NCBI GenBank assembly: GCA_040384765.1 | Contig: JAZKIQ010000001.1 | Span: forward strand, 67,246 to 122,616 | DNA: 55,371 bases | Direction of reading: 5' to 3' | Origin: Patescibacteria group bacterium | Lineage (GTDB): Bacteria; Patescibacteriota; Minisyncoccia; Phycocordibacterales; JBBUBG01 | In this document: positions 4,942-51,269 of the stretch, in pieces | How positions within the stretch are numbered: position 1 is the stretch's first letter | How the letters are laid out: each line of letters opens with the position of its first letter | The notes under the pieces: model-generated | Told to the model about the DNA's origin: nothing | Database searches by the model: none | Seen by the model: only the letters and a program-made list of their open reading frames with translations | Translations under genes and position numbers: made by a program

Positions 4942-5046
4942 CCCTTTATTTTAGCGCTTTATTGCGCTTTTCTATACGATTTTCGCCCCGTAAATGGGGA
5001 TAAGTATCTATTGCTGAGCTATCCTTGGAAAAACCTTATATTACAG

Positions 5047-13248: not shown

Positions 13249-13321
13249 AGCCACCTGTCAGATTTGAACTGACGACCTACGCTTTACAAAAGCGTTGCTC
13301 TACCAGCTGAGCTAAGGTGGC
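13249..13321 (-). tRNA. tRNA-Thr (anticodon UGU), no encoded CCA
   Basis: Manual cloverleaf: GCCACCT TA GCTC AGCTGGTA GAGC A ACGCT TTTGTAA AGCGT AGGTC GTCAG TTCAAAT CTGAC AGGTGGC T. The 3' end lies 10 nt upstream of the pheS start. Confidence 0.85.
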
Positions 13322-21494: not shown

Positions 21495-22580
21495 TTAAAT
21501 CCTAAATTCAATCACATCCCCATCCTTCACGATGTACTCCTTTCCTTCTGTTCGCACTGTCCCCTTTTCGCGAGCAGCCGCATATGAGCCCGCGCCAAGC
21601 AGTGCGCTTTCGTGAACAACCTCTGCTCGAATAAACTTCTCTTTGAAATCTGTATGAATTGCCGTGCCCGCTTCAGGCGCCGTGGAACCTTTCTTCACCG
21701 TCCAAGCGCGCGTCTCATCCTCGCCAGTCGTAAAATACGTCATTAGGCCGAGAAGATCGTAGCTTTTGACGATGAGGTCATTGAGGCCGTCATCTTTTGC
21801 ACCAAGCTCTTCGCGAAACATCCCTTTTTCATCATCTTCCATCCGCGAAAGCTCGTGCTCGATCGCAGCATCCACAAACACATATCCCGCTTTTTGATCT
21901 TTGAAAAAAGCTTCGAGCGCAGGCGATATCTCCCGCTTTCCACCCTTCGTGTTGAGCACATACAAGATAGGCTTCATAGTGAGAAGATGCATGCCATACA
22001 CATATGGCATCTCTTTATCCGTAAACTCCACCGTGCGTGCAAGCTCACCTGCGGCAAGCGCTGGCTCTATCTTTGAAAGTGCCTCCTTTTCTGCGATCGC
22101 CGCTTTGTCGCCACGCTTTACGTCACGCTCCAGATTTGCAAGGCGCTTCGTCACTGTTTCAAGGTCTGCAAGCACAAGCTCAAGATTGATGATGCCAATA
22201 TCGTGCACAGGATCTGGCTTTCCGTGTACATGGATAATATTCGGGTCTTCGAAGATGCGCACCACCTCTGCGATCGCATCTACCTCTCGGATATGCGAAA
22301 GAAACTGGTTTCCAAGTCCTTCACCTGATGCTGCGCCCTGCACAAGGCCTGCGATATCCACAAACTCTACAACCGCAGGGATCGTTTTCGCGGATTTTGA
22401 AAGGTGCGAGAGCTTGCTGAGGCGATCATCGGGCACGGGCACAATACCGACAGACGGATCGATCGTACAAAATGGATAGTTCTCCGCCGGAACTGATTTT
22501 TTGGTCAGCGCATTAAAGAGCGTCGACTTGCCAACGTTGGGAAGACCTACGATACCGATACTCAGTGAACTGCTTGACAT
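21495..22580 (-). CDS. ychF: ribosome-binding ATPase YchF
   Basis: GIVGLPNVGKSTLFNALT, FCTIDP, DIAGLV, a TGS-like C-terminus and a length of 361 aa. Confidence 0.9.
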   Translation of the reverse strand: MSSSSLSIGIVGLPNVGKSTLFNALTKKSVPAENYPFCTIDPSVGIVPVPDDRLSKLSHLSKSAKTIPAVVEFVDIAGLVQGAASGEGLGNQFLSHIREVDAIAEVVRIFEDPNIIHVHGKPDPVHDIGIINLELVLADLETVTKRLANLERDVKRGDKAAIAEKEALSKIEPALAAGELARTVEFTDKEMPYVYGMHLLTMKPILYVLNTKGGKREISPALEAFFKDQKAGYVFVDAAIEHELSRMEDDEKGMFREELGAKDDGLNDLIVKSYDLLGLMTYFTTGEDETRAWTVKKGSTAPEAGTAIHTDFKEKFIRAEVVHESALLGAGSYAAAREKGTVRTEGKEYIVKDGDVIEFRI

Positions 22581-24180
22581 AGGTTTGATTTAGATCGATT
22601 TCGCCATAAACGGATAATTGCTTCTGACTGGAAGAGATGCGCGTATTAGTCCTAGCGATTATGCGCTTTTTCTCCTCTAAATTCAAGGTTCCAAGCGTCT
22701 CCTGTGCTTCTTTCGCAAAACGCTCTATCTCCTCTTCTTCGGGCATCATGAGCTCGCGGCTTTCCTTTTGCACGAGGTACGCCTGCGCCAAGTCTTTCTC
22801 AAGTATCTCTATTTCAACCTTGAGAGGACTAACAAGCTCCTTAAGCCTATCGACGGGGATAATTCCTTCAGAAAAGGCAGTAAGGTATTTTTCCTCCCTT
22901 TTTCTCCTCTTTGTAATCTCCTCCTTGGTATTTTCGATATTCACCACGCCTCTCGTGACCTTACTTTCACGCGATTCCCTTACATGGTTTTCAATCTGGG
23001 CTTGCATGAGTGCTGGGGTACTCATGAAGCGTCTCAGAGCTTCCCACACCACTTCATCTGCAATACGTGCGTTTATACCCTTCTCATGGCAATTTCGCGG
23101 CAAAGGGAAACTATACACACGATCAGTGCATCGATAGTAGAGATGCTTTCCTTTTTGGGGACCTTCCCCCGCTCTACGCCGCCCGCAAATGCACCATATC
23201 GCCCCCGCAAGGAGGTAATCATTCCTTTTACCTCTCCCGACAATCGCAAAGTTGTCTCTCAACTGCTTGCCTGTACGATAGAAGAGGTCCTCGTCGACGA
23301 TCTTATGTGGGATGTTAATAAGGAACCATTCAGCGCGAGGCCTCATGCGCTTACTCGTCTTTTTTATTTTCTTATACTTCTGCTCTTTGAGCGGTTTGGT
23401 GGGAACAACGGCATACGATGCGCCCCAATACGCCCTGCCTATATAGGTCTCATTACGCAAGAGAGTGCTTAAGGTGCTCGTATTCCATACTTTCCTCTTG
23501 TTTTTACGAGGCGTAATACCTAGCTCAAGCAACTTTCTCACGACTCCTCGTAGTGTCATTCGCTCAATTGCCACCCACCGGAAAATCATTCGTACCACCG
23601 CCGCTTCTTTCTCATTTACAATGAAATGCCCTACTACATACTCAGGAGTTCCGCGCTTCCCCACATTCGGAATATAGGTAAATCCGTAAGGAGCTTCGGT
23701 GACCAATACGTGCCCCTTGTCGATCCGACTTAATTTCCCAAGACGAAATCTCTCCGCTATCTTGTCTCGTTCGTAATCTGCAAATAGACCACGCATTCCG
23801 GCGAATAACTTATCATTAAAGTCTTTTATCGGAGGGAGAGTAACAAAAAGCAGCTCAACCCCCGACTCTTTGAGCAGATCACGGACCCCTTCCTGATGAA
23901 AATAACTCCGGGCGATACGATCAGGGTCATACGCAAGTACCGCCTCCCAGATGTGCTTTTTGGCATCTACCCGCAACTCATCAAGCTGAGGACGTTTAAT
24001 ATTATCTCCAGGCCACCCCTCATCAAGATACTCTTTAACGATGATATACCCTTTTTCAGCTGCGAACTTCCGCACCTCAAGAAGCTGTGCCTCGATGGTT
24101 TTTTCCTCTGCTTGGTTAGCGGTTGAAACACGGGCATACACCGCAACCAGCTTACCCTCACCCTTAGGTTCATTACTCAT
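22513..24180 (-). CDS. large serine recombinase (integrase)
   Basis: The 555-aa ORF has catalytic VAVYARVSTANQ, DEGWPGDNIKRPQL and DRIARS. A recombinase domain follows, then a zinc ribbon CICGRRRAGEGPQKGKHLYYRC...C and a C-terminal coiled coil. The last 23 codons overlap the ychF 5' end in another frame. Confidence 0.88.
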   Translation of the reverse strand: MSNEPKGEGKLVAVYARVSTANQAEEKTIEAQLLEVRKFAAEKGYIIVKEYLDEGWPGDNIKRPQLDELRVDAKKHIWEAVLAYDPDRIARSYFHQEGVRDLLKESGVELLFVTLPPIKDFNDKLFAGMRGLFADYERDKIAERFRLGKLSRIDKGHVLVTEAPYGFTYIPNVGKRGTPEYVVGHFIVNEKEAAVVRMIFRWVAIERMTLRGVVRKLLELGITPRKNKRKVWNTSTLSTLLRNETYIGRAYWGASYAVVPTKPLKEQKYKKIKKTSKRMRPRAEWFLINIPHKIVDEDLFYRTGKQLRDNFAIVGRGKRNDYLLAGAIWCICGRRRAGEGPQKGKHLYYRCTDRVYSFPLPRNCHEKGINARIADEVVWEALRRFMSTPALMQAQIENHVRESRESKVTRGVVNIENTKEEITKRRKREEKYLTAFSEGIIPVDRLKELVSPLKVEIEILEKDLAQAYLVQKESRELMMPEEEEIERFAKEAQETLGTLNLEEKKRIIARTNTRISSSQKQLSVYGEIDLNQTYVKQFTEYRYRRSSQRWQVDAL

Positions 24181-28550: not shown

Positions 28551-30269
28551 CTAAGCAGGCTCCTCGAATTTCTTGAGGAATGCATTCATGGCATCTGCAA
28601 TTGCCCGTCTTCGATACGCGAGGAAGTTTCGGTAGTTGCTGATCTCCCAAAGACTCCTGTCGATCGGAATAAACTGTGAAGAAAGTGCCTCTTCTGTCTG
28701 CTCAGCAACAATCTTCTCCATATACTCCTTTGGCTCTTTGTTGGTGATGGTCCTGTTTGCCTTGCCTCCAATAAACGCCATGTTGGCAATCTCATTCACC
28801 TCTTTCTTGTCGTAGTCCTTAAGCAGCGACTTCGGGAATATGTGATGATACTGGATCGTGTGGGCATTTCCGGTGTGCTTGTCAGAAAGTCGCAGGCCTG
28901 ACCACCAGTCTTTAACCCCGTCGTGCTTAAAAATGAAATAGAGCAGTGAAAAGAACGGGCTACGAATGCCTCGATTAGCGAGATCATCATAGTCAACGTG
29001 AATCTTCTTTACATGGAGCTGAAGCTGGATGACCAGTTCATCTAACCCCTTGTTTCTAAAGAGAGTTCCAAGATCAGCATCAAGGATCGATTCAGAAGAA
29101 CCCATACTGTAGTGCCCTCGCATGTGAGCAATGAAGAGCCACCGAAGCAGCTTCTTTTCTTCGCTTGGTGTTAGGGACTCCCCTTCTTTCAGCACCCAAT
29201 AGACCGCAATCGGAATAATGAGAAAAGGCGAAGAAAGATAGGTGAGATTGTCGACACCTGCATTCTTACTCACGAAGTTAATGGCGAAGCGCAAACCATC
29301 GCCCGCGAGCTTCCACGATTCTTCAAGCTTTTCTCTGCTTACCTTATTAATAGTTTTGAAACGGCTCTGCTTAGTGGCAAAGATGGTCATAAGGCGCACC
29401 GGAAGCCCTGTTTCGAGAATATAGTCCGCATCATGGCCAAACTCTGCAGACAGCTCTTCTACTTTATCCATGAAGCCCTTCCACTTGGAGGTGATCTGAG
29501 CCATAGCAAGATCAGTACCGCGTAGCTTTATGCCCAGAGAGTTCACCCGCACAAAGATCTCAGTCACCTCTTCGTATGACATGGTGGCCGGAAGAATCTC
29601 CATCGTGTAGGAGTAGTCTCGAATCTTGCGAATCTTTGCGAGCCTATCGGAGTACTTCTGATAACGGGGATCAGCAAGTGAGGTAATACCTGTAGCTTGC
29701 AGTATCTCGCTTGGGTCTTTTTTGAAAATATCTGAAACAGGAACCCACACTGGATCATTCTTGAGAGAGCGGCTCTCTACGACAAACGTACGCTTGCGCA
29801 TCTCTGTCTGAATGTCCCGTTCTGCGTTCTCTTCGTCCTCTACGTCCTCAATATCGGCAGTAAAATCAAGGTCATCTACCTCGGTGATATCGACTGGTGG
29901 CCCATCGGGGTGCTCGAGATTAAAAAGGATGTCGATGGTCTTCTGACGGTTTTTGCTCCGCACATGCACAGGCTCGCCGCTCACGATCGCTGAAAGTGAG
30001 GTTACGCGCTGCTGGCCATCCAAGAGAAGAAGCTTTTGAGATGTGGTCGGCGTTCTCGTAGCATGTACCGCAAGCTCGCGCACCGGCATATCTTCGTCTG
30101 TTTCCCATACCAAAATAGTGCCGGAAGGGTAGCCTCGATACAGAGAATCGAGAAGATCACGAACACGAGTCGCAGGCCACACATAGCGGCGTTGCATTTC
30201 AGGAAGCGTAAGCTCGCCTCGTTGCACCTTATCTACCAACTCACTGACCTTTATGTTTGTTTGAGCCAT
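28551..30269 (-). CDS. GmrSD-family type IV restriction enzyme (DUF262 plus DUF1524/HNH-like)
   Basis: N-terminal ELTLPEMQRRYVW and LLLLDGQQRVTSL (DGQQR motif). C-terminal HTIQYHHIFPKSLL...NEIANMAFIGGKANRTI. ATG at 30269 lies 10 nt after the upstream stop. Confidence 0.8.
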   Translation of the reverse strand: MAQTNIKVSELVDKVQRGELTLPEMQRRYVWPATRVRDLLDSLYRGYPSGTILVWETDEDMPVRELAVHATRTPTTSQKLLLLDGQQRVTSLSAIVSGEPVHVRSKNRQKTIDILFNLEHPDGPPVDITEVDDLDFTADIEDVEDEENAERDIQTEMRKRTFVVESRSLKNDPVWVPVSDIFKKDPSEILQATGITSLADPRYQKYSDRLAKIRKIRDYSYTMEILPATMSYEEVTEIFVRVNSLGIKLRGTDLAMAQITSKWKGFMDKVEELSAEFGHDADYILETGLPVRLMTIFATKQSRFKTINKVSREKLEESWKLAGDGLRFAINFVSKNAGVDNLTYLSSPFLIIPIAVYWVLKEGESLTPSEEKKLLRWLFIAHMRGHYSMGSSESILDADLGTLFRNKGLDELVIQLQLHVKKIHVDYDDLANRGIRSPFFSLLYFIFKHDGVKDWWSGLRLSDKHTGNAHTIQYHHIFPKSLLKDYDKKEVNEIANMAFIGGKANRTITNKEPKEYMEKIVAEQTEEALSSQFIPIDRSLWEISNYRNFLAYRRRAIADAMNAFLKKFEEPA

Positions 30270-30279
30270 ATCTATCTTT

Positions 30280-30834
30280 CTACAAGTAATAATCAGAATC
30301 AGCCACCCGCTCATCTATCATTTCCTTTTGCTCACTTGTGGGCGCATCGGCTTCGCACAAGGTTCTTAAACCCATATCTCCACCGTCATCTGCATCGAGT
30401 CGATATACCCATGCCCAAAATACCTTATACGGCTTATCTATGAAAGTGACATACGCCTGAACTCCGCCATAGTCATTATCGGAAGCATCCAAAACAACGA
30501 ACTTGCCGATATAGCTATCTTTAGCAAAATTATTGAGGCCACACTTCATCGTATCACTCGAAGCCTCAAGAGCACTTTCCTCAAAGCCAACATTGGTCCC
30601 GTCCAAGTATCCATCTATCGCTACACGAATTTGTTTGATGTATGCACTGCTATATATCTCTTCATCTGTGGGGGTTTTCCCGATTCTGGGAGGATTCTCC
30701 GATTCGAGATGCTTTATGGCCTGCATGACCTGATCGATATCTAACGTGCGAGATTCTGGTTTGACCTTGAATTGAAACCAATAAGCAGCAAGTCCCAATA
30801 TGACTACCGCTCCTAGAATAGTGTATTTTTTCAC
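30280..30834 (-). CDS. membrane-anchored hypothetical protein (N-terminal TM, about 160-aa external domain)
   Basis: MKKYTILGAVVILGLAAYWF. A 4-nt overlap links it to the upstream gene. Confidence 0.5.
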   Translation of the reverse strand: MKKYTILGAVVILGLAAYWFQFKVKPESRTLDIDQVMQAIKHLESENPPRIGKTPTDEEIYSSAYIKQIRVAIDGYLDGTNVGFEESALEASSDTMKCGLNNFAKDSYIGKFVVLDASDNDYGGVQAYVTFIDKPYKVFWAWVYRLDADDGGDMGLRTLCEADAPTSEQKEMIDERVADSDYYL

Positions 30835-31247: not shown

Positions 31248-32114
31248 TCATGATAATTTCGCTGCGCGATAACGACTGCTGCTCGTCTGGTCGTGGTGCG
31301 CCCTGCAGAGCGGAGCGCCATTGTTCACGTCCCATAGAATCATACACTCATATGCCTGCATTACTGTTGTTATCCCATATCGCTGGATAATTGCATAGAA
31401 CGACATGTATCGGTGGTCGATCTCTACATTTTCGCTTGATCCGCAAACGATGCAGTTTCGGCCATACTTTTCAAAAACGCCTTGTCGCCAGGCGGCATAC
31501 TGCGGCATGTGCTCAATCTGTCTGCGTAACTCCACATATGCCGCCTTGCGTCGCTCTTCCGCATCGCGACGCATGTATGCCGCATCGATCTGCTTTTGCC
31601 CTCTCTCGGCTCGCTTCTCCGGAGTGTTCTCTTTAAGGATAAGGTGCACAATCCAGCCACCTACGAGAACCACGAAGAGCGGAAATACGAAAAAGAATGA
31701 GCCCAGCAAAATGACTCCTATGAAAATGACTACGGGCCAACTGTGCGGCTCCTGCTGAGCCTTCGCGGGTGCTTCATAAAAAGATGCGCTTGGCCTCTCT
31801 CGGATACGAGGCGGAGGTGAAAAAGAGTTTATTTTTTCTTGTTCAACCTCCCCAGTCTTCTTTTCTTCCAACGATTTCTGATACTCTTGCGTTCCCTCTT
31901 CCATCATTCGCTCTTCTTTTTCTCGCACCGCAAGAATACCTACATTGAGAGCTGTATCGTTAAATGGATGTTCGTCGGGAATCTCTCCTTCTCCTTCTTC
32001 GGCAAAGACTAGCTGTTGTTTGAGCGTGGGATCATCCTCTGCCCACTCCGCTTCCTTGAGCTCAAGGTAATCGCTTCCAATGTCCTGATCTTCATCGAGG
32101 TCCATCATGGGCAT
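31248..32114 (-). CDS. membrane-tethered HNH endonuclease
   Basis: An acidic N-terminal region is followed by TM segments WPVVIFIGVILLGSFFFVFPLFVVLVGGWIVHLIL. The C-terminal HNH reads CIVCGSSENVEIDHRY...NNGAPLCRAHHDQT. The start is uncertain (ATG 32114 or 32282). Confidence 0.65.
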   Translation of the reverse strand: MPMMDLDEDQDIGSDYLELKEAEWAEDDPTLKQQLVFAEEGEGEIPDEHPFNDTALNVGILAVREKEERMMEEGTQEYQKSLEEKKTGEVEQEKINSFSPPPRIRERPSASFYEAPAKAQQEPHSWPVVIFIGVILLGSFFFVFPLFVVLVGGWIVHLILKENTPEKRAERGQKQIDAAYMRRDAEERRKAAYVELRRQIEHMPQYAAWRQGVFEKYGRNCIVCGSSENVEIDHRYMSFYAIIQRYGITTVMQAYECMILWDVNNGAPLCRAHHDQTSSSRYRAAKLS

Positions 32115-32390
32115 AAAAAAATCCCTAGCTGGTAAAGGCTGGGAGGGTGAAGGTCTAGATAGACATTGAGCCCCGGTCCAGCCGGACCCCTTGCGGGATC
32201 CCATACCCCTTTCGAGATATGACCAACAAAGATGGCTGAACACGGGGCTCAGTATCTTTGTTGGATTTTCAAGCCATGCCACCGCAAAAGCGATGGTTTA
32301 GGCTCTACTCCTTTCGGAGTTCATATTTAGTTGTATGACGATAATAGCACTTCTTTGGGAAGTGCTAAAGACCTCTTAGTGAGAGGAGCG

Positions 32391-34865
32391 CTAATTACTT
32401 GCGGGCTTCTTTTTTAGGTTTATGTTCACAGACCCACAGGCACACCTAAGTGAATCGAGTGTTTTTGGCGCAGTAAACGCAAGATAATACAAGCCCTTGC
32501 AACCCTCTTGATCGCAGCAAAAACTTTGTACCAAAACATGAAAAGCTTCTACAACGTGAGTAAAATCCGCAACGTGAAAGTTTGCCCATTCGTTGTAATG
32601 GATCGCCGGATTTATGAGCCACTGATCAGCGTTAGTTGCACTGAATGCTTCGGTGATTGCTTTTTCTTTCTCTTCGATTTTTTTAACATCCTCCGCGTGC
32701 CCCCAGGATTCTGCTGCCTTTTTCCCATCCGCAAGAATCTTGCGCAAACTCGCCACTGAAGGTGACAGAATGTCTCCGAGTTCATAGCGACCATCTCCTC
32801 TGAATTCAACACGAGCGCGAAGATGGTGAGCTATGTCTTTGAAAAGATACTCTGAATAGTATCTCAATATACCCGCAGCGCTTCGAACATCGTCTTTCTC
32901 AAGAGCAGAAGCTATTTCAGTCCACACAGCACGGTTGCTCCATTCTGTAGGTCCATGATCGGGAGTCCAATTACTAAACCGAGTAGAGCCTGTATCTCCA
33001 ATCAAGCCGACGCTTCCCATGTGCTTCAACCAGACTTCATCATGAGTCGTCAGTACAAATTGCGTATCAGGAAACCGTTCCTTGAGGAGCTTGCAAACTT
33101 CACGACGATGACCAGCATCAACAGACATAAGTACGTCATCGAGTACGGCAAAAGTGAAATTTTCGCCTTGAAGTCGTTGCATAAGGGCTAGATACAAACA
33201 AAGACCCATACCATCCTGATGCCCTTCGCTGTGATATGCCCCTGGAGGAAAATGTCCACGACCATAGAAATCAACGTCGAAACCGACCTTGCCTGTTGAA
33301 GGAATTAATTTTGCACTAAACTCACTCTCATCATCACTATTGATTGATCGGTAAAATTCGCTGAACTCTTTTTCTACCTGTTTATAGACGCCAGAAAGCA
33401 CTTTATCCGCCTCTTCGGCATATATGTCATAGACACTTTGAGCTAGATCGGCATGCTCGCCAGACTTTTTTAGTCTTCGCATGGCTTCACGATATGTTTC
33501 TAGACGATCGTGACAGAGAATGAGATAGTCTCTTGCCGCTTCCTGCTGACTAGGTTCTGGAATCGCAACCAGAGCCGCATCGATTAGACGGAGAACCTCA
33601 TTAAAGTCTCCAGGTATCTTACCTACCTCTCCTAGCGCGAGCAGTGTTTCGGAAAGAGGAAGAAAGGCCTTAATTTTTCTTGCCTTCAAATCAAGAGCTG
33701 CCCTATATGTTGAAAGATGCACAACCTGCTCCGGAGTAATAATTTTTGCGTGCTTTTCCAGTGCAAAGAGAGCTGTACGCATGCGATCGAATAGATCCGT
33801 AATCGGCTCAAGTCTCCTCTCGAGAGCACTTCGTAATTTACCCGTCTCTTCAAACACCTTGAGCTTACCCTCCACATTTGCACGCAAAGTTGGAATGTCC
33901 CACGGAGTATCGCAGACGGGACAAAGTGGTTCAACAATAAGAGGCAAGGTCGCCCGCAAAAATTTCTCCCTCGATACACTATCAAGAAGAGCTGGGTCTG
34001 CGTTAAGTGCAGTAAGTTGAACATGCAAATCGGCACATTCACCTGTGATACCCGGATCTATAAGTCTGCCCAAGAGGTCTTTCGTCGTTTTTAAATCGGC
34101 CAAAGCCTCGACCTTATTTATTTTTGGTATAGCTGCGCCTTTCGCACCAGTTTTGACTCCATCATGCAGAATCGTTGTATTCGTAAGAGTGTCGATCGGA
34201 GCTAGGCCAAGAATCACTCGACGAATATTAACGGCCTCAAGAAGCTTCTCGGGCTTCAGTTCTGGAATCTCAAGTCCCTTTGCCAACGACTCCCGCGCCT
34301 CGTCTGCAGCTTTTTTAGCGCCTATTTTCTCTTTATTACAAGTATTGCTAATCGTTTTCAGGGTACTGCGAAGATCACCCAGTTGATCCAGCCGCAAAAG
34401 AGCCTGGATCTCTTCTGAGCGTTTGCCTGGTTGAGCAAGTACGTAGGCAATCAGCTCACGCCGAGAGAGCACAAACTCCGGGCGGTCTTCGAGCAGGTCA
34501 AGAACTCCCAGAACATCCGGAGTATTGGGAGTAACTAAGGGATTATTGGGATTAGCAACACTTCTTTCAAGACGAACCCTCTTGTTGCCTAGAGATGGTA
34601 TACGTAATTCGAGAATCACTTTTGCTTTCTCCGGATAGTCTCGACTATCCACATGGGGAGCATGCTTCCGAAGCGAAATGCCACCTGTTCCCTCACCTCC
34701 AAGACGAGATATATTGCCGGTCAAACCAAATTCAAGGGCATCAACAACACCACTTTTTCCAGTGCCGTTAGGACCCGAAATTGCAAAGTTCTCACCTTTG
34801 AAGTTTAGGGGGAGATTACGAATACCTCGGAATTCTTCTATCGTGATCTTGTCGACCAGAATCAT
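32391..34865 (-). CDS. Rad50/SMC-like ABC ATPase with a coiled-coil CxxC zinc hook; RloC/PrrC-like candidate
   Basis: Walker A GPNGTGKSG, signature-like HSEGHQDGMGL, Walker B FAVLDDVLMSVD and H-loop VLTTHDE. Roughly 400 aa between Walker A (aa 31-39) and the signature motif (aa ~545) has a heptad-like helical character by eye (no coiled-coil prediction run), with LCPVCDTPW near its middle (nt 33912-33923). The C-terminal domain has LRYYSEY (R-x3-E) and a terminal CCDQEGC...CAC cluster. Confidence 0.6.
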   Translation of the reverse strand: MILVDKITIEEFRGIRNLPLNFKGENFAISGPNGTGKSGVVDALEFGLTGNISRLGGEGTGGISLRKHAPHVDSRDYPEKAKVILELRIPSLGNKRVRLERSVANPNNPLVTPNTPDVLGVLDLLEDRPEFVLSRRELIAYVLAQPGKRSEEIQALLRLDQLGDLRSTLKTISNTCNKEKIGAKKAADEARESLAKGLEIPELKPEKLLEAVNIRRVILGLAPIDTLTNTTILHDGVKTGAKGAAIPKINKVEALADLKTTKDLLGRLIDPGITGECADLHVQLTALNADPALLDSVSREKFLRATLPLIVEPLCPVCDTPWDIPTLRANVEGKLKVFEETGKLRSALERRLEPITDLFDRMRTALFALEKHAKIITPEQVVHLSTYRAALDLKARKIKAFLPLSETLLALGEVGKIPGDFNEVLRLIDAALVAIPEPSQQEAARDYLILCHDRLETYREAMRRLKKSGEHADLAQSVYDIYAEEADKVLSGVYKQVEKEFSEFYRSINSDDESEFSAKLIPSTGKVGFDVDFYGRGHFPPGAYHSEGHQDGMGLCLYLALMQRLQGENFTFAVLDDVLMSVDAGHRREVCKLLKERFPDTQFVLTTHDEVWLKHMGSVGLIGDTGSTRFSNWTPDHGPTEWSNRAVWTEIASALEKDDVRSAAGILRYYSEYLFKDIAHHLRARVEFRGDGRYELGDILSPSVASLRKILADGKKAAESWGHAEDVKKIEEKEKAITEAFSATNADQWLINPAIHYNEWANFHVADFTHVVEAFHVLVQSFCCDQEGCKGLYYLAFTAPKTLDSLRCACGSVNINLKKKPASN

Positions 34866-35062
34866 GAGTCCGTGTTGTTATCGGAAAAGAGAGCATTTTT
34901 TATTGTGGGCTCTGAAACAGTCCCCTTCTCAATAAGAGCTTTTCTGAGACGTGAAATCACATCTACAGGAAAACTTTTTTCTTCTAACGCTTTCAAAAAG
35001 GCCTCAAATGCCTGCTTGGGGACACCGACAACAGGACGACCTGATTCTTGTTCTTCTTCCAT
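34862..35062 (-). CDS. small hypothetical protein coupled to the ATPase
   Basis: The 66-aa ORF has a stop that overlaps the ATPase start (ATGA). It lies 10 nt downstream of res. Confidence 0.45.
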   Translation of the reverse strand: MEEEQESGRPVVGVPKQAFEAFLKALEEKSFPVDVISRLRKALIEKGTVSEPTIKNALFSDNNTDS

Positions 35063-35072
35063 GATGGTAGTT

Positions 35073-37751
35073 TTATTTCGAGAAAACTCGCGTTACCTCG
35101 CCAAATGTACGCGGTTTTTTCTCTAGTCCTTCCCATGCCTCCTGCTTAATATAGAGCATCTGGTATTTGGCGTTCTTTTGATTAGCGTTCACGTCGTCGC
35201 ACCACTGCGCAAGGCGTTTAATCTTCTCAATATCGTCGAGGTCCTCGCGACCTTTGGTCTCTACAATGTAATACTCCTTTGGCGACACCTTCACAATGAA
35301 GTCTGGGTAGTAGTCAGAAATGCTTCCGTCTGCATTGCGATAGTCGACCTTGAAGTGAACGGCGAAATAGTTCTTCGCATACGAAATTATGTCCTCGCAG
35401 TCCTCAAGAAAACTCGCAAACTCGAGCTCAAAGTGACTGTCTCCAATGAGCTTGTTGAAAATGCTCTTTTTCGGAACGATATACCCCTGATCCTTCACAA
35501 CGAATGGCCTGCATTTACTAATCTTGATGTAGTCACGGATCTCAGCCTCTCCTCTGTCGAGAACGGTCAGGGTGTTGATCGCCTTTTTGAAGGTTTCGAT
35601 GATCGTGCGCGAGACCTCAATCTCTGAAAGATTTCGAAGTGAGTTGAGATTGTCGAGGTCTACATGCTCGACAAACAGGCGTTCTTCAATCAGTTCCTTT
35701 ACCTTGCCATAGAGGATGTCGTAGCCGGAGATGAGACGCAACTCATTCATAATCACCTTCGTAAAGTAGCCGATAACGCTCCGGTAATTGGGAATGAAAT
35801 TACTATCAAGCTCCGTTCTATGAGTTATGTCGTCGCTCGTGATATCGCGAAAAACAATCTCTCGCTTCTCTTCATCGGTGAACTGCTTGATCGGAAGCTT
35901 TTTATTTTGAAAAGTTGAGACATCCAGCTCCGAGAGGTTCTTATACTCTCGATAGATACGCGGCGTAAGCACTGGGATCTCAATATCAAGCTTCTCAATA
36001 TCTTTTTTGAGGTTCTCGCGGTCAATCTCCACCACAAGAGGAGCCTTGGGACCGCTTCCTTCTCCCATTTTGCGATACTCAAGATCCACACCTTCGTTTT
36101 TGATCGATTCCACGAAGTCCATAAATGCATCTGTACCAACAACACTGACAAGCTCAGACAGATCAGGATCGCGATACATACGACGAAGACCTCGACCAAG
36201 CGTCTGCTCAGGCAAGATATTACTCTTCGAACTGTATGCACGAAGCCCTACGATGGTCGTCACATTGCGAACATCCCAACCTTCCTTGAGCATAAGTACC
36301 GAAACAATAACCTTGTGCGGACTGTCGAGGCGATCGATGGAATTGGCATCGTGTCGTAGTTTTTTGAGCTCTTCTTCTTTCTTGCCACTCACACTCTCTG
36401 ATATTTCACCGTTGTCTTTCGTGTGAATGACAAGCACTCCGCCTTTCAGATCGGAATAAGTGTTCTCAAGATATTCGGCAACCTCGTCACAGTTTTTTGT
36501 GTCATCGGTCATCACAAAAAGCACAGACTTCTTCCCAAGCTTCATGTGCTCGTCATACACCTTCTTCCATTCAAGGTACCCAAGATGTAGATAGTCTTTG
36601 TATTTCTCGCTGTACTTTGAGGTCTGATGCTCTTGGAGCTTGGCACGACTCGCAGGGTCCGGAAGCACCGGATGCTTCACCACATTCTGATGGATAGCCT
36701 CTACGAGCGGATAGTCGGAGATTGTTTGAACAAAAATTGCACCATTGTTGTGCTTCGGCGTAGCCGTAACATCCACTTGAAGGCTCAAGCGCCCGCCTTT
36801 CATCACAAGACGGTTGTGAATATCCTCTATAGCCTTAAACCATGCGAGGCGAGGATCATGGATGTGGTGCGCTTCGTCATTGAGCACTATGAGCTCGTCT
36901 ATGTTTCGCACGATATCACCAAGATCAATTTTTGATTCATTCGTAGCACCTGATGGCTTGGTTCCAAGGAAATAGTTTGCTGTATCTTCATCTTCGAAGC
37001 TCGCAGATTCGGTTGCACCCTCATAAATGCGATGAATGTTCGTGAGAAAGATGTTCCCCGTTTTTTTGACAGCACCTACTTGGTCTTGGATGTGAAGCGT
37101 CATCTGAAAATCATCCCTCCAGTTTCGCCCCTGATATCCATTATCGGGAAGCACCGGATCTTGGAAGAAAATCTTGAGTCCATCAAAGTCCGTCCGGATA
37201 CGATCAAGCACGATGATGTTTGGTGCGATCACCAGGAAGTTGCGAGCAAGCTCAGAATCTTCCTCGTAGAGCTTGTGAAAATAACTCCATGCAAGAACAA
37301 GAGAAAGAACCTTCGTCTTTCCCGAGCCAGTTGCCATTTTCACCACATATCGCGCCCATGTTTCGTCAAACTGTCCCGTGCGAAGATAACCTGAAGCATC
37401 AAACTTCATGAGATCGTATTTCTCACGTGCCTTGGCCACTTCATAGAGCCATATGATCGTCTCTACGGCTTCGCGCTGGGCAAAGTAGTACTGAAATAAG
37501 AAGAGGCCATCAGGGCTCTCTGTGGGGTGATCTGTGAGGAACCACCATTTAAGAAGTGCTCGACTCGTCTCGCTCACTCCCTCATAGTCATCACTTCGCC
37601 ATTCAGCTACCTTTTTGCGTAGTTCAGCAACAAGAGGAGGCAAGAGCTTCTCGTGCCCCTGATCACGAAGCGCCTCGTCCGCAGGAAACCAGCGTGTGGC
37701 AGGATCGAGTACCGCATAAGGTGATTTCGGAAATTTAGGATGTAAGGCCAT
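35073..37751 (-). CDS. res: type III restriction enzyme Res subunit (SF2 helicase plus C-terminal PD-(D/E)xK nuclease)
   Basis: MATGSGKTKV, LNDEAHHIH, VLMLKEGWDVRNV and QTLGRGLR. C-terminal YYPDFIVKV...YIVETKGRED. Confidence 0.85.
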   Translation of the reverse strand: MALHPKFPKSPYAVLDPATRWFPADEALRDQGHEKLLPPLVAELRKKVAEWRSDDYEGVSETSRALLKWWFLTDHPTESPDGLFLFQYYFAQREAVETIIWLYEVAKAREKYDLMKFDASGYLRTGQFDETWARYVVKMATGSGKTKVLSLVLAWSYFHKLYEEDSELARNFLVIAPNIIVLDRIRTDFDGLKIFFQDPVLPDNGYQGRNWRDDFQMTLHIQDQVGAVKKTGNIFLTNIHRIYEGATESASFEDEDTANYFLGTKPSGATNESKIDLGDIVRNIDELIVLNDEAHHIHDPRLAWFKAIEDIHNRLVMKGGRLSLQVDVTATPKHNNGAIFVQTISDYPLVEAIHQNVVKHPVLPDPASRAKLQEHQTSKYSEKYKDYLHLGYLEWKKVYDEHMKLGKKSVLFVMTDDTKNCDEVAEYLENTYSDLKGGVLVIHTKDNGEISESVSGKKEEELKKLRHDANSIDRLDSPHKVIVSVLMLKEGWDVRNVTTIVGLRAYSSKSNILPEQTLGRGLRRMYRDPDLSELVSVVGTDAFMDFVESIKNEGVDLEYRKMGEGSGPKAPLVVEIDRENLKKDIEKLDIEIPVLTPRIYREYKNLSELDVSTFQNKKLPIKQFTDEEKREIVFRDITSDDITHRTELDSNFIPNYRSVIGYFTKVIMNELRLISGYDILYGKVKELIEERLFVEHVDLDNLNSLRNLSEIEVSRTIIETFKKAINTLTVLDRGEAEIRDYIKISKCRPFVVKDQGYIVPKKSIFNKLIGDSHFELEFASFLEDCEDIISYAKNYFAVHFKVDYRNADGSISDYYPDFIVKVSPKEYYIVETKGREDLDDIEKIKRLAQWCDDVNANQKNAKYQMLYIKQEAWEGLEKKPRTFGEVTRVFSK

Positions 37752-38190
37752 AGGAGGTAGCTAGATCTCTGATAACTCGCTTGATGTGTCGATTAAGGTA
37801 GATGCGATGAGGCCCGTAGTAAAAAGCCGCGTCATCTGCATAATCACAACCCATAGTTATATCTCCCATGCGAATGCCGTTCGGAACATGTCCCACGAAT
37901 CGGTTGAAAACAAAAGAATTAGTATCTATCTTCCTTGTGTTGCTTGAAATATGACACGCGGCATTACGCAACTTTGAAACCAGATCAGTTACATCTTTCA
38001 CTTCATCTTGAGCAATAACGTCGTCAGTAAACTGGATTCTTTTCCCGTTAGTAGCCGCGAGTTGCAAGATATGATTCAGCTTAATCAGAATCTCAATAAA
38101 TGCCGACTCCGCAAACAAAGAGTCGGTCTCGAGTACTCGAGACTCTACGAGCTGATGTATGCGCCTGATGTCCATTGCTTCTGGGATCAT
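37735..38190 (-). CDS. HEPN-motif protein encoded between mod and res
   Basis: The 151-aa ORF carries SKLRNAACH (R-x4-H, RN..xH type) at nt 37951-37968. Its start overlaps the mod stop (ATGA) and its 3' end overlaps the res start by 17 nt. Confidence 0.5.
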   Translation of the reverse strand: MIPEAMDIRRIHQLVESRVLETDSLFAESAFIEILIKLNHILQLAATNGKRIQFTDDVIAQDEVKDVTDLVSKLRNAACHISSNTRKIDTNSFVFNRFVGHVPNGIRMGDITMGCDYADDAAFYYGPHRIYLNRHIKRVIRDLATSYGLTS

Positions 38191-40439
38191 ACTTTTAGCT
38201 CAACTATCTTCATCGTGTCATTTCCGAATATGTCCACAACCTTTACCGCGATTTTTCTTTTACCGCCAGAAAGCTCGCGAGGGGTACTCGTGAGTTCAAG
38301 TGCACGATCCTTTTTGGTACGAAATGACTGCCATTCGTTCTCGAAGATATAGCTTCCGGTCCATGCCTCTTCGAATCCTTCGCCCTCTTTTTTAGGAACA
38401 CGGATAATCTCTTTTTTACTCTCGAAGTTGAAGTCGATAGCCCAGTAGTCGATCCAGTCAGTCCACTTCTTCGTCAACGTCTCGCGGGTCAAAATGCCAT
38501 CCTTATCTTTGGACACTTTGATGATCTGGCCGTTTTCTACGAGAAGCTTTTTGCCACCGTTCTTGAGATTTTCCTCCACCTCTTTGATTGAGTCTTGGTT
38601 GTAGAACACCGAAAAATCAGTGAGCTCGATCGATACAGATCCCTTCTTCACAATCGGCTTCACTTCTATATAGGACACATCATGAAAGACCACCTGATTT
38701 TTCTCGATTGCCCGCTTATCGAAGATGTCACGAGGAATGTATTTGAGGGCAAGATCGATACCCTTGCTCTTTGCCTCTTCCTGAATATTCGGGAAAAGCC
38801 CCATCTCAAACTCGAAAGCCAGTACATCTATCTTGGTAATCTTTTTCTCAAGGCTCTCCTGAATTACTGCTTCAACAAAGAGACGTGATACGGGAAGATT
38901 GATAGGACCAATAGCGATAAGGCGTGAGTTTTTCTTGCCGTGGAATGTCTTGAAGCCATCAAAGGCCTCCGCTTTATAAGCACCAAGGATAAGTGCCACG
39001 AAGTCCTTTTCCTTTTGAGCGATCTGCTGAGCCTTTTCTTCTTCGCGAAGGTTGGGGTTGATGCCAACGTAGTGCTGACGCTCATATTTGCCAAGGTTTA
39101 GTATTTCAAAAGCGCGGAAATCTTTGCCCTCATTTCTAAGTTGGCGCTGCACTCCAATCATACGCTTCCGGGCTGTGTGAACTGAAAACTTTCCTAGATC
39201 CGAACCTATCCATTTACGACCCAGCTTTTCTGCGACAGCAAGAGTGGTGCCTGAACCAGCAAAAAAGTCAGCAATAAGATCGCCTTCATTAGATGAGACC
39301 TTAATAATGCGCTCAAGTAATGATTCTGGTTTCTGCGTCGGGTAATCTAGAAGTTCAACATTTTTCCCCTTAAGAAGGCGGATGTCCGTCCACAAGTTGG
39401 TTACGAGTTGTCCCTCATACTCATCGAGGTATATTTTCTTGTACACTTGCTTGGATTTATCAGTTGGGAAATAAATAAGTCCTTTCTGATCCAACTCCTC
39501 CATTTTCTGCTTTGAGTATCTCCATCCATTTGGAGGGGTCTTATAGCCCTTAAAATCATAAATCAGGTTGGGCCGGTAGGTAGGACTACTGGTGACATTC
39601 AACATATAGCGGCGTCCGTCAGACTCCTGCTTCGTGAACATCTGCTCGATGTAATCAGGATCTGGTGTCATGTAGACGTTATTCCAAATGGGCGACTCGG
39701 ATTTCGCATACAAAAGAATCGTATCCGTATTTACAGACATCTTAGACATTGAACTCAGAGCGGACCCACCTTTTCTTTTCCAAGTGATTTCATTAATGAA
39801 GTTATTTTTCCCGAATAACTCATCCAAAATCATGCGCATGTACGCATTCACTCGCCAGTCACAATGGACATAAATACTTCCATCTTCTGAAAGCAGACTA
39901 TGCATGAGCGAAAGCCTTTCATAGATCATGGCGATAAAGCTGTCCGCTCCCTTGCCCCAAGTATCACGATAAGCGAGCTCTTCAAGCACAGAAGGTTGCT
40001 TGGTAAACTCCTCATCACCAATCTCTATGTTCATCGAAAAATCCGCACCAACATCAAAAGGCGGATCGATATAGATGAGCTTGATACCCCCTTGGGCTTC
40101 GATCTCTTGACGAAGCGGACCATTCTTGAGACTCGAGAGTACCAGTTTGTTGTCTCCCCAAATAAGCTTGTTCGTCCAACCCTGAAGCTGCCGTCCGCGA
40201 GGGTCAACATCGAAAAGAGAATCCTGACGCTTGGCTATTTTGTCATTGCGTGGCTCGTCCACTTGCTCGATCACCTGAAAAGGCAAAACCGTGTTGGTCA
40301 CCTCGTCTGTCTTGCCATTCCATACGAGCTCTACCTCGCGCTTGTCACCAAAAAGAAGAAACCGGTACTTGTCCGGGAGTGCTTTGCCTGCCTCTATGTA
40401 CTGCGCGATGTCGCGCTTTTCATTGTCCGATAGGTACAT
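38187..40439 (-). CDS. mod: type III restriction-modification DNA methyltransferase Mod subunit
   Basis: Motif IV IYIDPPFDVGADF and motif I DFFAGSGTTLAVAEKLGRKWIGSDL, in beta-class order, with a long variable middle region. Length 750 aa. Confidence 0.85.
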   Translation of the reverse strand: MYLSDNEKRDIAQYIEAGKALPDKYRFLLFGDKREVELVWNGKTDEVTNTVLPFQVIEQVDEPRNDKIAKRQDSLFDVDPRGRQLQGWTNKLIWGDNKLVLSSLKNGPLRQEIEAQGGIKLIYIDPPFDVGADFSMNIEIGDEEFTKQPSVLEELAYRDTWGKGADSFIAMIYERLSLMHSLLSEDGSIYVHCDWRVNAYMRMILDELFGKNNFINEITWKRKGGSALSSMSKMSVNTDTILLYAKSESPIWNNVYMTPDPDYIEQMFTKQESDGRRYMLNVTSSPTYRPNLIYDFKGYKTPPNGWRYSKQKMEELDQKGLIYFPTDKSKQVYKKIYLDEYEGQLVTNLWTDIRLLKGKNVELLDYPTQKPESLLERIIKVSSNEGDLIADFFAGSGTTLAVAEKLGRKWIGSDLGKFSVHTARKRMIGVQRQLRNEGKDFRAFEILNLGKYERQHYVGINPNLREEEKAQQIAQKEKDFVALILGAYKAEAFDGFKTFHGKKNSRLIAIGPINLPVSRLFVEAVIQESLEKKITKIDVLAFEFEMGLFPNIQEEAKSKGIDLALKYIPRDIFDKRAIEKNQVVFHDVSYIEVKPIVKKGSVSIELTDFSVFYNQDSIKEVEENLKNGGKKLLVENGQIIKVSKDKDGILTRETLTKKWTDWIDYWAIDFNFESKKEIIRVPKKEGEGFEEAWTGSYIFENEWQSFRTKKDRALELTSTPRELSGGKRKIAVKVVDIFGNDTMKIVELKV

Positions 40440-40490: not shown

Positions 40491-40520
40491 GCACAACAAT
40501 AAAGGCCCCTCTGCGGGGCT
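40491..40520 (-). terminator. terminator separating the 40548..41360 gene from the mod operon
   Basis: The minus strand reads GCCCC-GCAGA-GGGGC followed by CTTTATTGTT. Confidence 0.55.
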
Positions 40521-50813: not shown

Positions 50814-50884
50814 TGGACCCTGCGAGAATCGAACTCGCGCCTCGGCAATGCGAATGCCGCGTAATACCACTTTACTAAGGGCCC
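50814..50884 (-). tRNA. tRNA-Ala (anticodon CGC), G3:U70 present, no encoded CCA
   Basis: GGGCCCT TA GTAA AGTGGTA TTAC G CGGCA TTCGCAT TGCCG AGGC GCGAG TTCGATT CTCGC AGGGTCC A. Confidence 0.8.
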
Positions 50885-51198: not shown

Positions 51199-51269
51199 GG
51201 GCCTGTAGCTTAGTGGCAGAGCGCCCGGTTTGCATCCGGGATATGGGAGTTCGATTCTCCCCAGGTCCA
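51199..51269 (+). tRNA. tRNA-Ala (anticodon UGC), G3:U70 present, no encoded CCA
   Basis: GGGCCTG TA GCTT AGTGGCA GAGC G CCCGG TTTGCAT CCGGG ATAT GGGAG TTCGATT CTCCC CAGGTCC A. Confidence 0.85.

Follow-up and report, generated by a model that had tools for sequence, protein, structure and literature searches.

The window analysed here is the whole 55,371-nucleotide stretch of contig JAZKIQ010000001.1 from a Patescibacteria group bacterium. Positions 32391-40439 of this window carry five minus-strand genes, in which a type III restriction-modification (R-M) pair is split by a gene encoding a small HEPN-like protein and is followed by a second small gene and the gene of a Rad50-like ATPase. These genes and the hairpin that precedes them are, in order of transcription:

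40505-40519, minus strand: terminator-like hairpin (GCCCC-GCAGA-GGGGC) with a 5-bp stem made up entirely of G-C pairs and a T-rich tail.
38187-40439, minus strand: mod, encoding a type III N6/N4 DNA methyltransferase of 750 aa.
37735-38190, minus strand: the 151-aa open reading frame (ORF), a stand-alone HEPN-like gene lying exactly in the mod-res spacer.
35073-37751, minus strand: res, encoding a type III restriction helicase-endonuclease of 892 aa.
34862-35062, minus strand: the 66-aa ORF, encoding a partner protein and translationally coupled to the ATPase gene.
32391-34865, minus strand: the ATPase gene, encoding an 824-aa Rad50/LmuB-like zinc-hook ATP-binding cassette (ABC) ATPase with an extra C-terminal domain.

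The mod stop and the start of the 151-aa ORF overlap by 4 nt (ATGA, 38187-38190), 17 nt (37735-37751) are shared by the 151-aa ORF and the start of res, a gap of 10 nt separates res from the 66-aa ORF, and the 66-aa ORF stop overlaps the ATPase start by 4 nt (ATGA, 34862-34865). The five ORFs and their junctions had been described in an initial annotation of this sequence, and the coordinates were verified. The terminator that it placed upstream was also found, as a G-C-rich hairpin with a T-rich tail (40519-40505) situated between the stop of the upstream gene and mod; this hairpin closes the preceding gene and isolates the five-gene unit. Inside the unit there are 15 terminator-like sites, compared with 10.5 +/- 3.0 expected from shuffles. 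Because such sites are no commoner here than in shuffled sequence, a single transcript is plausible. The five genes very probably form one transcription unit, built from three modules that each exist independently elsewhere: the mod-res pair, the 151-aa gene, and the 66-aa ORF with its ATPase (the cassette).

The database gene call for the 151-aa ORF begins at M6 and gives a protein of 146 aa. As the start overlapping mod at the ATGA is kept in the homologues at loci L001 and L110, the 151-aa reading is favoured. A hairpin in the 5' part of this ORF (38103-38126, minus strand; 8-bp stem followed by a T-rich tail) was considered as an attenuator. It reaches -18.7 kcal/mol in the window and only -3 to -11 kcal/mol at the same codons in homologues, so it is not conserved and is probably incidental.

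Judged by their domain matches, mod and res constitute a type III R-M system, in agreement with the initial annotation. Mod matches Pfam N6_N4_Mtase (1.3e-43; 150 bits against a cut-off of 26.7) and PADLOC MTase_III (1e-109), while Res matches Pfam ResIII above the cut-off (3.9e-15) and PADLOC REase_III (6e-22). NCBIfam BPTD_3080 is also matched by Res (1e-83), below the cut-off of that model. The C-terminal RE_endonuc match of Res scores 21.7 bits, slightly below the 23.4 cut-off, and the nuclease domain taken alone is borderline. The genes have the order of a type III system, with mod preceding res in a single operon.

For each of the five proteins, the closest relatives are found in metagenome-assembled genomes (MAGs) of Patescibacteria or Saccharibacteria, which points to a possible origin of the window in the Candidate Phyla Radiation. 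Among them is L021, a Saccharibacteria MAG locus whose proteins share 69% (Mod), 82% (Res), 61% (small ORF) and 65% (ATPase) identity with those of the window. The gene order at L021 is that of the window (mod, res, small ORF, ATPase), but the 151-aa gene is absent and only 5 nt separate the mod stop from the res start. In a tblastx comparison of the two sequences, synteny is limited to this block and ends at the block edges, and the sole gap within it is the 151-aa gene. The insert in the window exactly replaces the 5-nt spacer of L021: it overlaps the mod stop at its own start and the res start over its final 17 nt, and Res begins with the same residues (MALHPKF) in both. The mod and res genes have a G+C content at third codon positions (GC3) of 0.52-0.53, compared with 0.45 in the 151-aa gene and 0.34-0.39 in the 66-aa ORF and the ATPase, differences that suggest three modules with three histories.

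Based on these results, the unit is a mosaic of three separable modules. The initial annotation had taken it for one dedicated five-gene defence unit, and this view was abandoned for three reasons. First, L021, the closest relative of the R-M genes, lacks the 151-aa gene. Second, over 85% of ATPase loci have no adjacent R-M genes (neighbour statistics cover 144 immediate neighbours at ~75 loci and use crude ORF calls with no formal background model). Third, most homologues of the 151-aa protein are encoded alone in prophages, integrative and conjugative elements (ICEs) or plasmids.

Searches of Pfam, PADLOC and NCBIfam returned no match to the 151-aa protein, and PHROGs gave no more than scattered singletons for its family. 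A word-indexed search for relatives returned 24 clusters, and an exhaustive profile search returned 571 clusters at 50% identity, nearly all of them stand-alone proteins of 150-220 aa. A feature of the family that is conserved in homologues is the following:

37951-37968, minus strand: codons of R75-N-A-A-C-H80, a candidate HEPN Rx4H motif.

Residues R75, N76, A77, C79 and H80 are invariant across 24 homologues. Among 146 diverse members, G126 is invariant, and conservation reaches at least 90% at D66, R75, C79, H80, S83, G100, D119, D120, Y131, R134 and H135. The weight of the motif rests on this conservation because, by our own estimate, a bare Rx4-6H string is expected by chance ~0.5 times in a protein of this size. 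An AlphaFold2 (AF2) model of the protein (pLDDT 90.8, pTM 0.87) has a four-helix core (residues 3-16, 27-47, 67-79 and 132-146), with a five-strand beta insert between the third and fourth helices. R75-N76...H80 lies at the end of model helix 3, and E33-x3-K37 lies in helix 2. HEPN domains are characterized by an Rx4-6H motif with a polar N, D or H directly after the arginine and by Ex3[KR] in helix 2 (PMC3710099), and the modelled protein fits this description in the position of its motif, in the polar residue after the arginine and in its helix-2 Ex3[KR].

Pfam matches below threshold in the 146 members are to DUF4145 (9/146, best E-value: 0.0017), Ribonuc_2-5A (two members), pEK499_p136 (two), Abi_2 (one) and HEPN_Apea (one). 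All five of these families were treated as HEPN in a 2013 survey (PMC3710099), and the matches, weak as they are at the sequence level, converge on HEPN families rather than being random. We think it likely that the 151-aa protein is a divergent HEPN-fold protein, and somewhat less likely that it is also an active ribonuclease (RNase).

The same protein might instead be a regulator, or an anti-restriction or restriction-alleviation factor derived from a mobile element, and might modulate the activity or expression of Res, for instance by holding back restriction in a new host. Its homologues are found in prophage early regions and beside ICE repressors, where anti-defence genes also occur, translation of res could be coupled to the 151-aa ORF through their 17-nt overlap, and no nuclease family is matched above threshold. 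However, the strict R-N-x-x-C-H together with D119/D120 and R134/H135 looks catalytic, the protein has no DNA-binding (helix-turn-helix) signature and the weak matches point jointly to HEPN families of the RNase type. The same slot at locus L057 moreover holds a bona fide HEPN family, Ymh. A regulatory role is, on this evidence, highly improbable.

The genomic contexts of the 151-aa family (taken from database gene calls for the high-GC loci) differ between distant and close relatives. Distant members, with no more than 50% identity, occur as single genes in prophages (of Pseudomonas and others) and in integrated elements, frequently running opposite to the early genes around them; one of them adjoins an insertion sequence element. 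A 35%-identical homologue is among the few cargo genes of a 5.8-kb MOBQ plasmid of Acinetobacter (L115, NZ_CP044472.1, bp 4570-5091), where it and a HigA/RelE pair are convergently oriented. Sequenced phage genomes were found to lack both the 151-aa gene and the ATPase gene.

The subclade with at least 58% identity to the window protein is located directly after an N6_N4 methyltransferase gene, with a 4-5-nt junction, in the window, at L001/L110 and at L111/L112. The three methyltransferases concerned are 31-38% identical to each other, and the third of them (31% identical) precedes a 58%-identical homologue. A fourth context of the subclade is a Legionella ICE, where there is no methyltransferase. 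At L001, the homologue overlaps the mod stop by 4 nt, as in the window, and the inserted protein is 65% identical to that of the window. As the neighbouring Mod and Res are only 38% and 36% identical, either the gene has moved between type III systems, or it is under far stronger constraint than Mod and Res; in both cases, its position is no accident. The initial annotation had made its proposal depend on linkage of these homologues to R-M genes in other genomes, and the close ones do follow three divergent N6_N4 methyltransferase genes.

Two further genes were observed at these loci. A 341-aa protein with predicted transmembrane segments and no Pfam match is encoded between the 151-aa homologue and res of this Patescibacteria type III locus (L001, 10459-11484, plus strand; L110, 766-1755, plus strand). 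A RhuM-Fic fusion gene lies upstream of L001 mod; the RhuM-Fic combination has been described for R-M/HEPN neighbourhoods (PMC3710099).

The 66-aa ORF and the ATPase gene form an autonomous, translationally coupled pair. At 73 of 76 evaluable loci, the ATPase start coincides with the end of a small ORF (mostly of 58-77 aa), with a 4-nt overlap in ~66, and 70 of these 73 ORFs belong to one hidden Markov model (HMM) family with the 66-aa protein of the window (alignment A6). The 66-aa ORF itself matches nothing in Pfam, PADLOC or NCBIfam. A PDB profile search with alignment A6 returned only designed helical repeats, which were dismissed as compositional. At four loci (L009-L012, from database gene calls), the pair is present with no type III R-M system adjacent to it.

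The ATPase has an SMC/Rad50-type N-terminal head, with matches to Pfam AAA_23 and SMC_N. Its best PADLOC match is LmuB (PDLC03859, E-value: 1e-16), in which residues 4-615 align to profile positions 5-591 of 611, and the closest PDB sequences to its family profile are archaeal Rad50 heads (1.4e-9). More than 1,225 clusters belong to the family. The top 120 are all 759-854 aa in length (mostly ~820 aa) and 48-68% identical to the window protein over 92-100% of the query length. Of 185,579 species representatives, 345 have a relative, among them members of the Candidate Phyla Radiation, Bacteroidota, Proteobacteria, Acidobacteriota, Nitrospirota, Leptospira, Legionella and others. Relatives are also found on 35 plasmids, and are annotated only as "AAA family ATPase" or "hypothetical protein". 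Three parts of the protein are relevant to its function:

34752-34775, minus strand: Walker A motif GPNGTGKS (aa 31-38), invariant in alignment A2.
33912-33923, minus strand: CPVC (aa 315-318), the zinc-hook motif, at the centre of the insert that separates both halves of the head; C315, P316 and C318 are invariant in 21 homologues.
32394-33032, minus strand: C-terminal domain of ~210 aa (aa 612-824), predicted as a helical bundle with a terminal Cys4 ribbon; candidate effector.

Other invariant motifs are the SEGHQ signature (SxGxQ), the FAVLDDV Walker B/D-loop and the switch histidine of TTHD. With its C-P-x-C hook invariant in 21 homologues and the Rad50-head match in PDB, the last gene is indeed the Rad50-like zinc-hook ABC ATPase gene that the initial annotation had recognized. 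In the C-terminal domain, R668-x3-E672, G690-D691, N752, H756, N758, W760, D767, C784, C789 and C808 are invariant and Cys 810 is nearly so; the AF2 model of this domain (pLDDT 81) is a helical bundle with a small beta ribbon. A kinship between this domain and the 151-aa family was considered and rejected, as hhalign gives a probability of 0.6%; the two are unrelated.

The pair could also be read as a Rad50/SbcC-like DNA-maintenance factor or as an addiction module of mobile elements of the toxin-antitoxin (TA) type. The ATPase head is closest to Rad50 in PDB, integrases or resolvases are often adjacent and 35 plasmids carry the gene, the small gene upstream and its 4-nt overlap correspond to the classic layout of a type II TA pair, and some loci, such as L009, lie among housekeeping genes. 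These points are countered by four others. First, no Mre11/SbcD-type nuclease partner is present. Second, the distribution over many phyla is sparse and patchy, which is typical of mobile defence genes. Third, several known defence systems are found among the neighbours. Fourth, the match to the defence ATPase LmuB runs from end to end. We consider a maintenance or addiction function very unlikely.

Screening of the cassette neighbours with PADLOC and Pfam identified type III restriction enzymes (3-4 loci), type I genes, BrxL, Dsr1, AbiEi and HmaB, along with integrases and resolvases (four each). The R-M loci are arranged as follows (Pfam assignments):

L030: N6_N4 methyltransferase, ResIII, small ORF, ATPase.
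L044/L047: N6_N4 methyltransferase, ResIII with RE_endonuc, small ORF, ATPase.
L057: N6_N4 methyltransferase, Ymh/PF09509 (1.4e-15), ResIII, with the cassette ~2 kb downstream.
L057, 2452-3204, plus strand: the 251-aa Ymh/PF09509 HEPN protein, between mod and res.
L020, 933-9154, plus strand: HsdR, HsdM, small ORF, ATPase, a 62-aa ORF, HsdS.
L071: ResIII and a mod-like gene, with the cassette ~2 kb downstream.

Identity between the window Mod and those of L030, L044 and L057 is only 28-33%, and a search with the window Res does not find the Res of L030 or L044 at 1e-5; for these reasons, the R-M systems of L030, L044 and L057 are regarded as separate lineages. Direct co-oriented abutment of the cassette and R-M genes is seen in ~4-5 independent lineages of ~75 (5-7%), and the two are within ~2 kb of each other in 7-9%. 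Linkage of the ATPase to R-M genes in other genomes, a second point on which the initial annotation had rested its case, is borne out by this abutment with type III or type I genes in several divergent lineages. The mod-HEPN-res order for which it had recommended a neighbourhood survey recurs as well, at L001 and L110 with a homologue of the 151-aa protein and at L057 with Ymh. Because Ymh is a HEPN family, listed as "In operon with R-M" (PMC3710099), L057 repeats the layout of mod, HEPN gene and res followed by the small-ORF/ATPase pair, with a different HEPN family. Ymh is a non-orthologous replacement in the mod-res slot.

Two observations concern individual cassette loci. The position of the L020 cassette inside a type I operon recalls those of prrC and the Campylobacter rlo genes. 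At L027, in a Saccharibacteria MAG, a group I intron (RF00028, 99 bits; 7455-7697, plus strand) is located ~2.3 kb upstream of the cassette.

These layouts bear on the view that the modules were stacked passively, by defence-island turnover and compaction into one transcript, with no functional cross-talk. It is true that every module occurs independently, that GC3 differs between modules, that the cassette has heterogeneous neighbours and that the region is an island which also holds a GmrSD enzyme and a serine recombinase. Yet the same order and orientation, with gaps of no more than ~25 nt, is found with very divergent type III (L030, L044) and type I (L020) systems. The subclade of the 151-aa protein follows three different methyltransferase genes at 4-5-nt junctions, and another HEPN family is found in the same slot at L057. 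In our informal judgement, a random shuffling of island genes should yield a less regular pattern, and we regard passive stacking as decidedly unlikely.

The same evidence bears on the model put forward in the initial annotation, in which the five genes are an integrated system: by analogy with PrrC and EcoprrI, the type III enzyme would physically silence latent RNases (the 151-aa HEPN protein and an RloC-like tRNA nuclease), which would fire when a phage disables restriction. All five genes are tightly coupled. The 151-aa gene between mod and res mirrors prrC within the hsd genes, a logic that has been proposed generally (PMC3710099), and HEPN-type genes recur at the mod-res junction (L001, L110, L057). 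At L020, hsdM and hsdS of a type I operon flank the cassette, and RloC is linked to R-M genes in a similar fraction of cases (8/72; PMC2610378). Against this model, each of the three modules is autonomous in the majority of genomes, L021 combines the same R-M genes and cassette with no 151-aa gene, and the 151-aa homologue found alone on a 5.8-kb plasmid implies that an R-M partner is not needed for tolerance. The ATPase, furthermore, does not have the triad spacing of RloC, and Pfam and PADLOC searches with its C-terminal domain revealed no homology to those of PrrC or RloC. Physical silencing by Mod or Res is possible by analogy, but would be unnecessary for most family members, which live without R-M genes; as an account of this locus, the integrated system is unlikely.

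The explanation that we favour, and hold to be probable, is that the locus is a three-module mosaic consisting of a type III R-M system, a back-up RNase of HEPN type (the 151-aa protein) and a Lamassu-related sensor-effector cassette. The 151-aa protein would most likely be a divergent metal-independent RNase of HEPN type that serves as an abortive-infection back-up, and the position of its gene would be analogous to that of prrC inside EcoprrI and of the Ymh gene between mod and res of L057. In the cassette, the ATPase would sense DNA, plausibly DNA ends, and would then release its C-terminal effector under the control of the small helical 66-aa protein. The pair would represent a two-gene Lamassu relative, with the small protein at the LmuC position and the effector fused to the ATPase in place of a separate LmuA. 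Given co-transcription and the placement of the cassette behind res, DNA ends made by restriction, or else the failure of restriction, could trigger the add-on modules.

Several results weigh against this explanation. No established HEPN family is matched above threshold by the 151-aa family; of the HEPN identity given to the inserted ORF in the initial annotation, the conserved motif at the right structural position has held up, and assignment to a known HEPN family has not followed. Foldseek searches with the 151-aa model against PDB and BFVD gave no significant match, and the HEPN entries 1wol, 1ufb and 2hsb appeared at noise level only (E-values: 3.5-9.8, template modelling score ~0.27), although the beta insert may mask the helical core. 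PDB sequence-profile searches with the 151-aa family alignments (A1 and A4) returned no matches. Similarly, the C-terminal domain of the ATPase has no match in Pfam, PADLOC, PDB sequences or a Foldseek search of PDB (best E-value: 0.8), and it has no arginine within 4-6 residues of its invariant histidine. For the small ORF, no similarity was detected to solved LmuC proteins or to any other protein. The crude ORF calls behind the neighbour counts must also be borne in mind, and, as most loci of the 151-aa and ATPase families have no R-M genes, functional coupling may be absent even here.

A more far-reaching version of this explanation can be formulated. The 66-aa/ATPase pair would be a widespread two-gene Lamassu relative whose fused effector is gated by a mini middle component. 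It would be wired behind res so that restriction ends, or unrestricted replicating phage DNA, trigger it, and an interchangeable HEPN slot would add an RNA-targeting arm, making the whole a cooperative three-layer unit. We offer this version tentatively, as a possibility that we do not favour. If it is true that DNA ends made by restriction feed a Rad50-like sensor, this would be a concrete mechanism for synergy between R-M and abortive infection. Natural comparisons for the cooperation of the modules are provided by L021 (which lacks the HEPN-like gene), L057 (which has another HEPN family) and L020 (which has the cassette in a type I operon).

Downstream of the five genes, the window encodes a GmrSD-type type IV restriction enzyme (GmrSD_N, 5e-28; 28551-30314, minus strand) and a large serine recombinase with Resolvase, Recombinase and Zn ribbon domains (22513-24180, minus strand). 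Because of these two genes, the region looks like a defence island on a mobile element. A full-length LOOT RNA (Rfam RF03000, 92.8 bits against a gathering score of 46.4, E-value: 1.7e-16) is located at 32184-32304 on the minus strand, 87 nt downstream of the ATPase stop and on the same strand. L021 also has a LOOT RNA (87.9 bits, 3279-3393), there upstream of mod, such that the RNA borders the block in both genomes on opposite sides. This position in L021 rules it out as a component of the cassette; it might mark an integration hot spot. The ORF after the LOOT RNA in the window (31248-32282, minus strand) has no Pfam match and encodes a C-terminal HNH-like Cys/His motif (CIVCGS...EIDH...NGAPLCRAHH). 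Its true start is probably downstream of the LOOT RNA, and the ORF following the LOOT RNA in L021 is not homologous to it. Three tRNA genes are present in the window, at 13249-13321 (minus strand), 50814-50884 (minus strand) and 51199-51269 (plus strand).

Among characterized systems, the cassette most closely resembles Lamassu (DdmABC, 'ABC-3C'), which consists of the effector LmuA, the small single-domain middle component LmuC and the Rad50-like zinc-hook ATPase LmuB, in that gene order (10.1101/2025.03.14.643221). The window ATPase aligns from end to end with the LmuB model and shares its Rad50-like head and zinc hook, and, as with LmuC, the gene for a small protein is located directly upstream (~65 aa here, 73/76 loci). 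It differs in that there is no LmuA effector gene in the window, where res is upstream of the small ORF, and in that the upstream genes are heterogeneous across the 75 loci. In addition, the window ATPase has a unique C-terminal domain of ~210 aa, and solved LmuB/DdmC chains are not among its PDB matches at E <1e-3.

RloC is a second candidate relative, and the initial annotation had called the ATPase RloC-like. RloC proteins are described as having ABC motifs, a CX2C hook in a coiled-coil insert and an Arg-X3-Glu-X36-52-His triad, often with a serine before the histidine (PMC2610378). The window ATPase is of comparable length (824 aa, compared with 658-897 aa for RloC), and its ABC motifs are interrupted by a presumably helical insert with a CX2C hook. 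It likewise has a non-ATPase C-terminal domain with an invariant R-x3-E and a downstream invariant histidine, and is occasionally linked to type I or III R-M genes at a similar frequency. However, its only invariant histidine, H756, lies 83 residues after the glutamate rather than 36-52 and is preceded by isoleucine or valine rather than serine, while H723, which is within the triad range, is not conserved. One could speculate that a two-helix insert seen in the model (~aa 696-744) explains the extra spacing. No Pfam or PADLOC model matches the C-terminal domain (RloC being compared here by its published motif description), no obligatory small upstream partner has been described for RloC, and the best HMM match of the window ATPase is LmuB rather than a PrrC/RloC model. 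As far as these sequence comparisons go, the ATPase resembles RloC in architecture only and is nearer to LmuB and Rad50, and the RloC-like identity was accordingly not retained.

The 151-aa gene invites comparison with PrrC and EcoprrI, as in both cases a HEPN-type gene is co-transcribed among R-M subunit genes and the same second-line logic could apply. In contrast to PrrC, the 151-aa protein has no ABC NTPase domain and is less than half the size; the host system is type III rather than type Ic, and the 151-aa family mostly occurs without any R-M system. Closer in size and setting are the R-M-associated HEPN families DUF4145, Ymh/PF09509, ApeA and pEK499_p136 (PMC3710099), which are also small HEPN-motif proteins in R-M operons. 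The 151-aa family has weak matches to DUF4145 and pEK499_p136, Ymh occupies the identical slot in L057, and L001 has the RhuM-Fic neighbour. The family is set apart from them by the lack of any match above threshold, by the beta insert between helices 3 and 4 and by its wider occurrence mainly as prophage, ICE or plasmid cargo. Finally, single-gene HEPN Abi proteins (AbiD/AbiF = Abi_2, AbiJ, AbiU2 and AbiV) are similar as stand-alone HEPN-motif accessory ('moron') genes on prophages and plasmids, and one member of the 151-aa family has a weak Abi_2 match; most of these proteins are much larger than the 151-aa protein, and there is no significant sequence match.

The arrangement as such, for which the initial annotation knew of no described counterpart, is not new in concept. 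At least 16 HEPN clades have been linked to R-M systems, ABC-HEPN fusions are known in R-M operons and it has been suggested that they act as a second line in the manner of PrrC (PMC3710099), such that R-M-embedded HEPN genes and an ABC-HEPN second line were already described in 2013. Within the libraries searched, three things appear to be undescribed: this HEPN-like family, the pairing of a small ORF with an LmuB-like ATPase that has a unique C-terminal domain (a clade that may already have been named) and the recurrent wiring of these modules behind type III or type I R-M systems. The locus draws attention to two uncharacterized families with good defence credentials, namely a minimal HEPN-like protein of ~160 aa and a small-protein/zinc-hook-ATPase pair found in hundreds of species. 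As the concept of R-M with a HEPN RNase back-up has been in print since 2013, what is gained here is not a new principle but new members and a wiring that can be tested.

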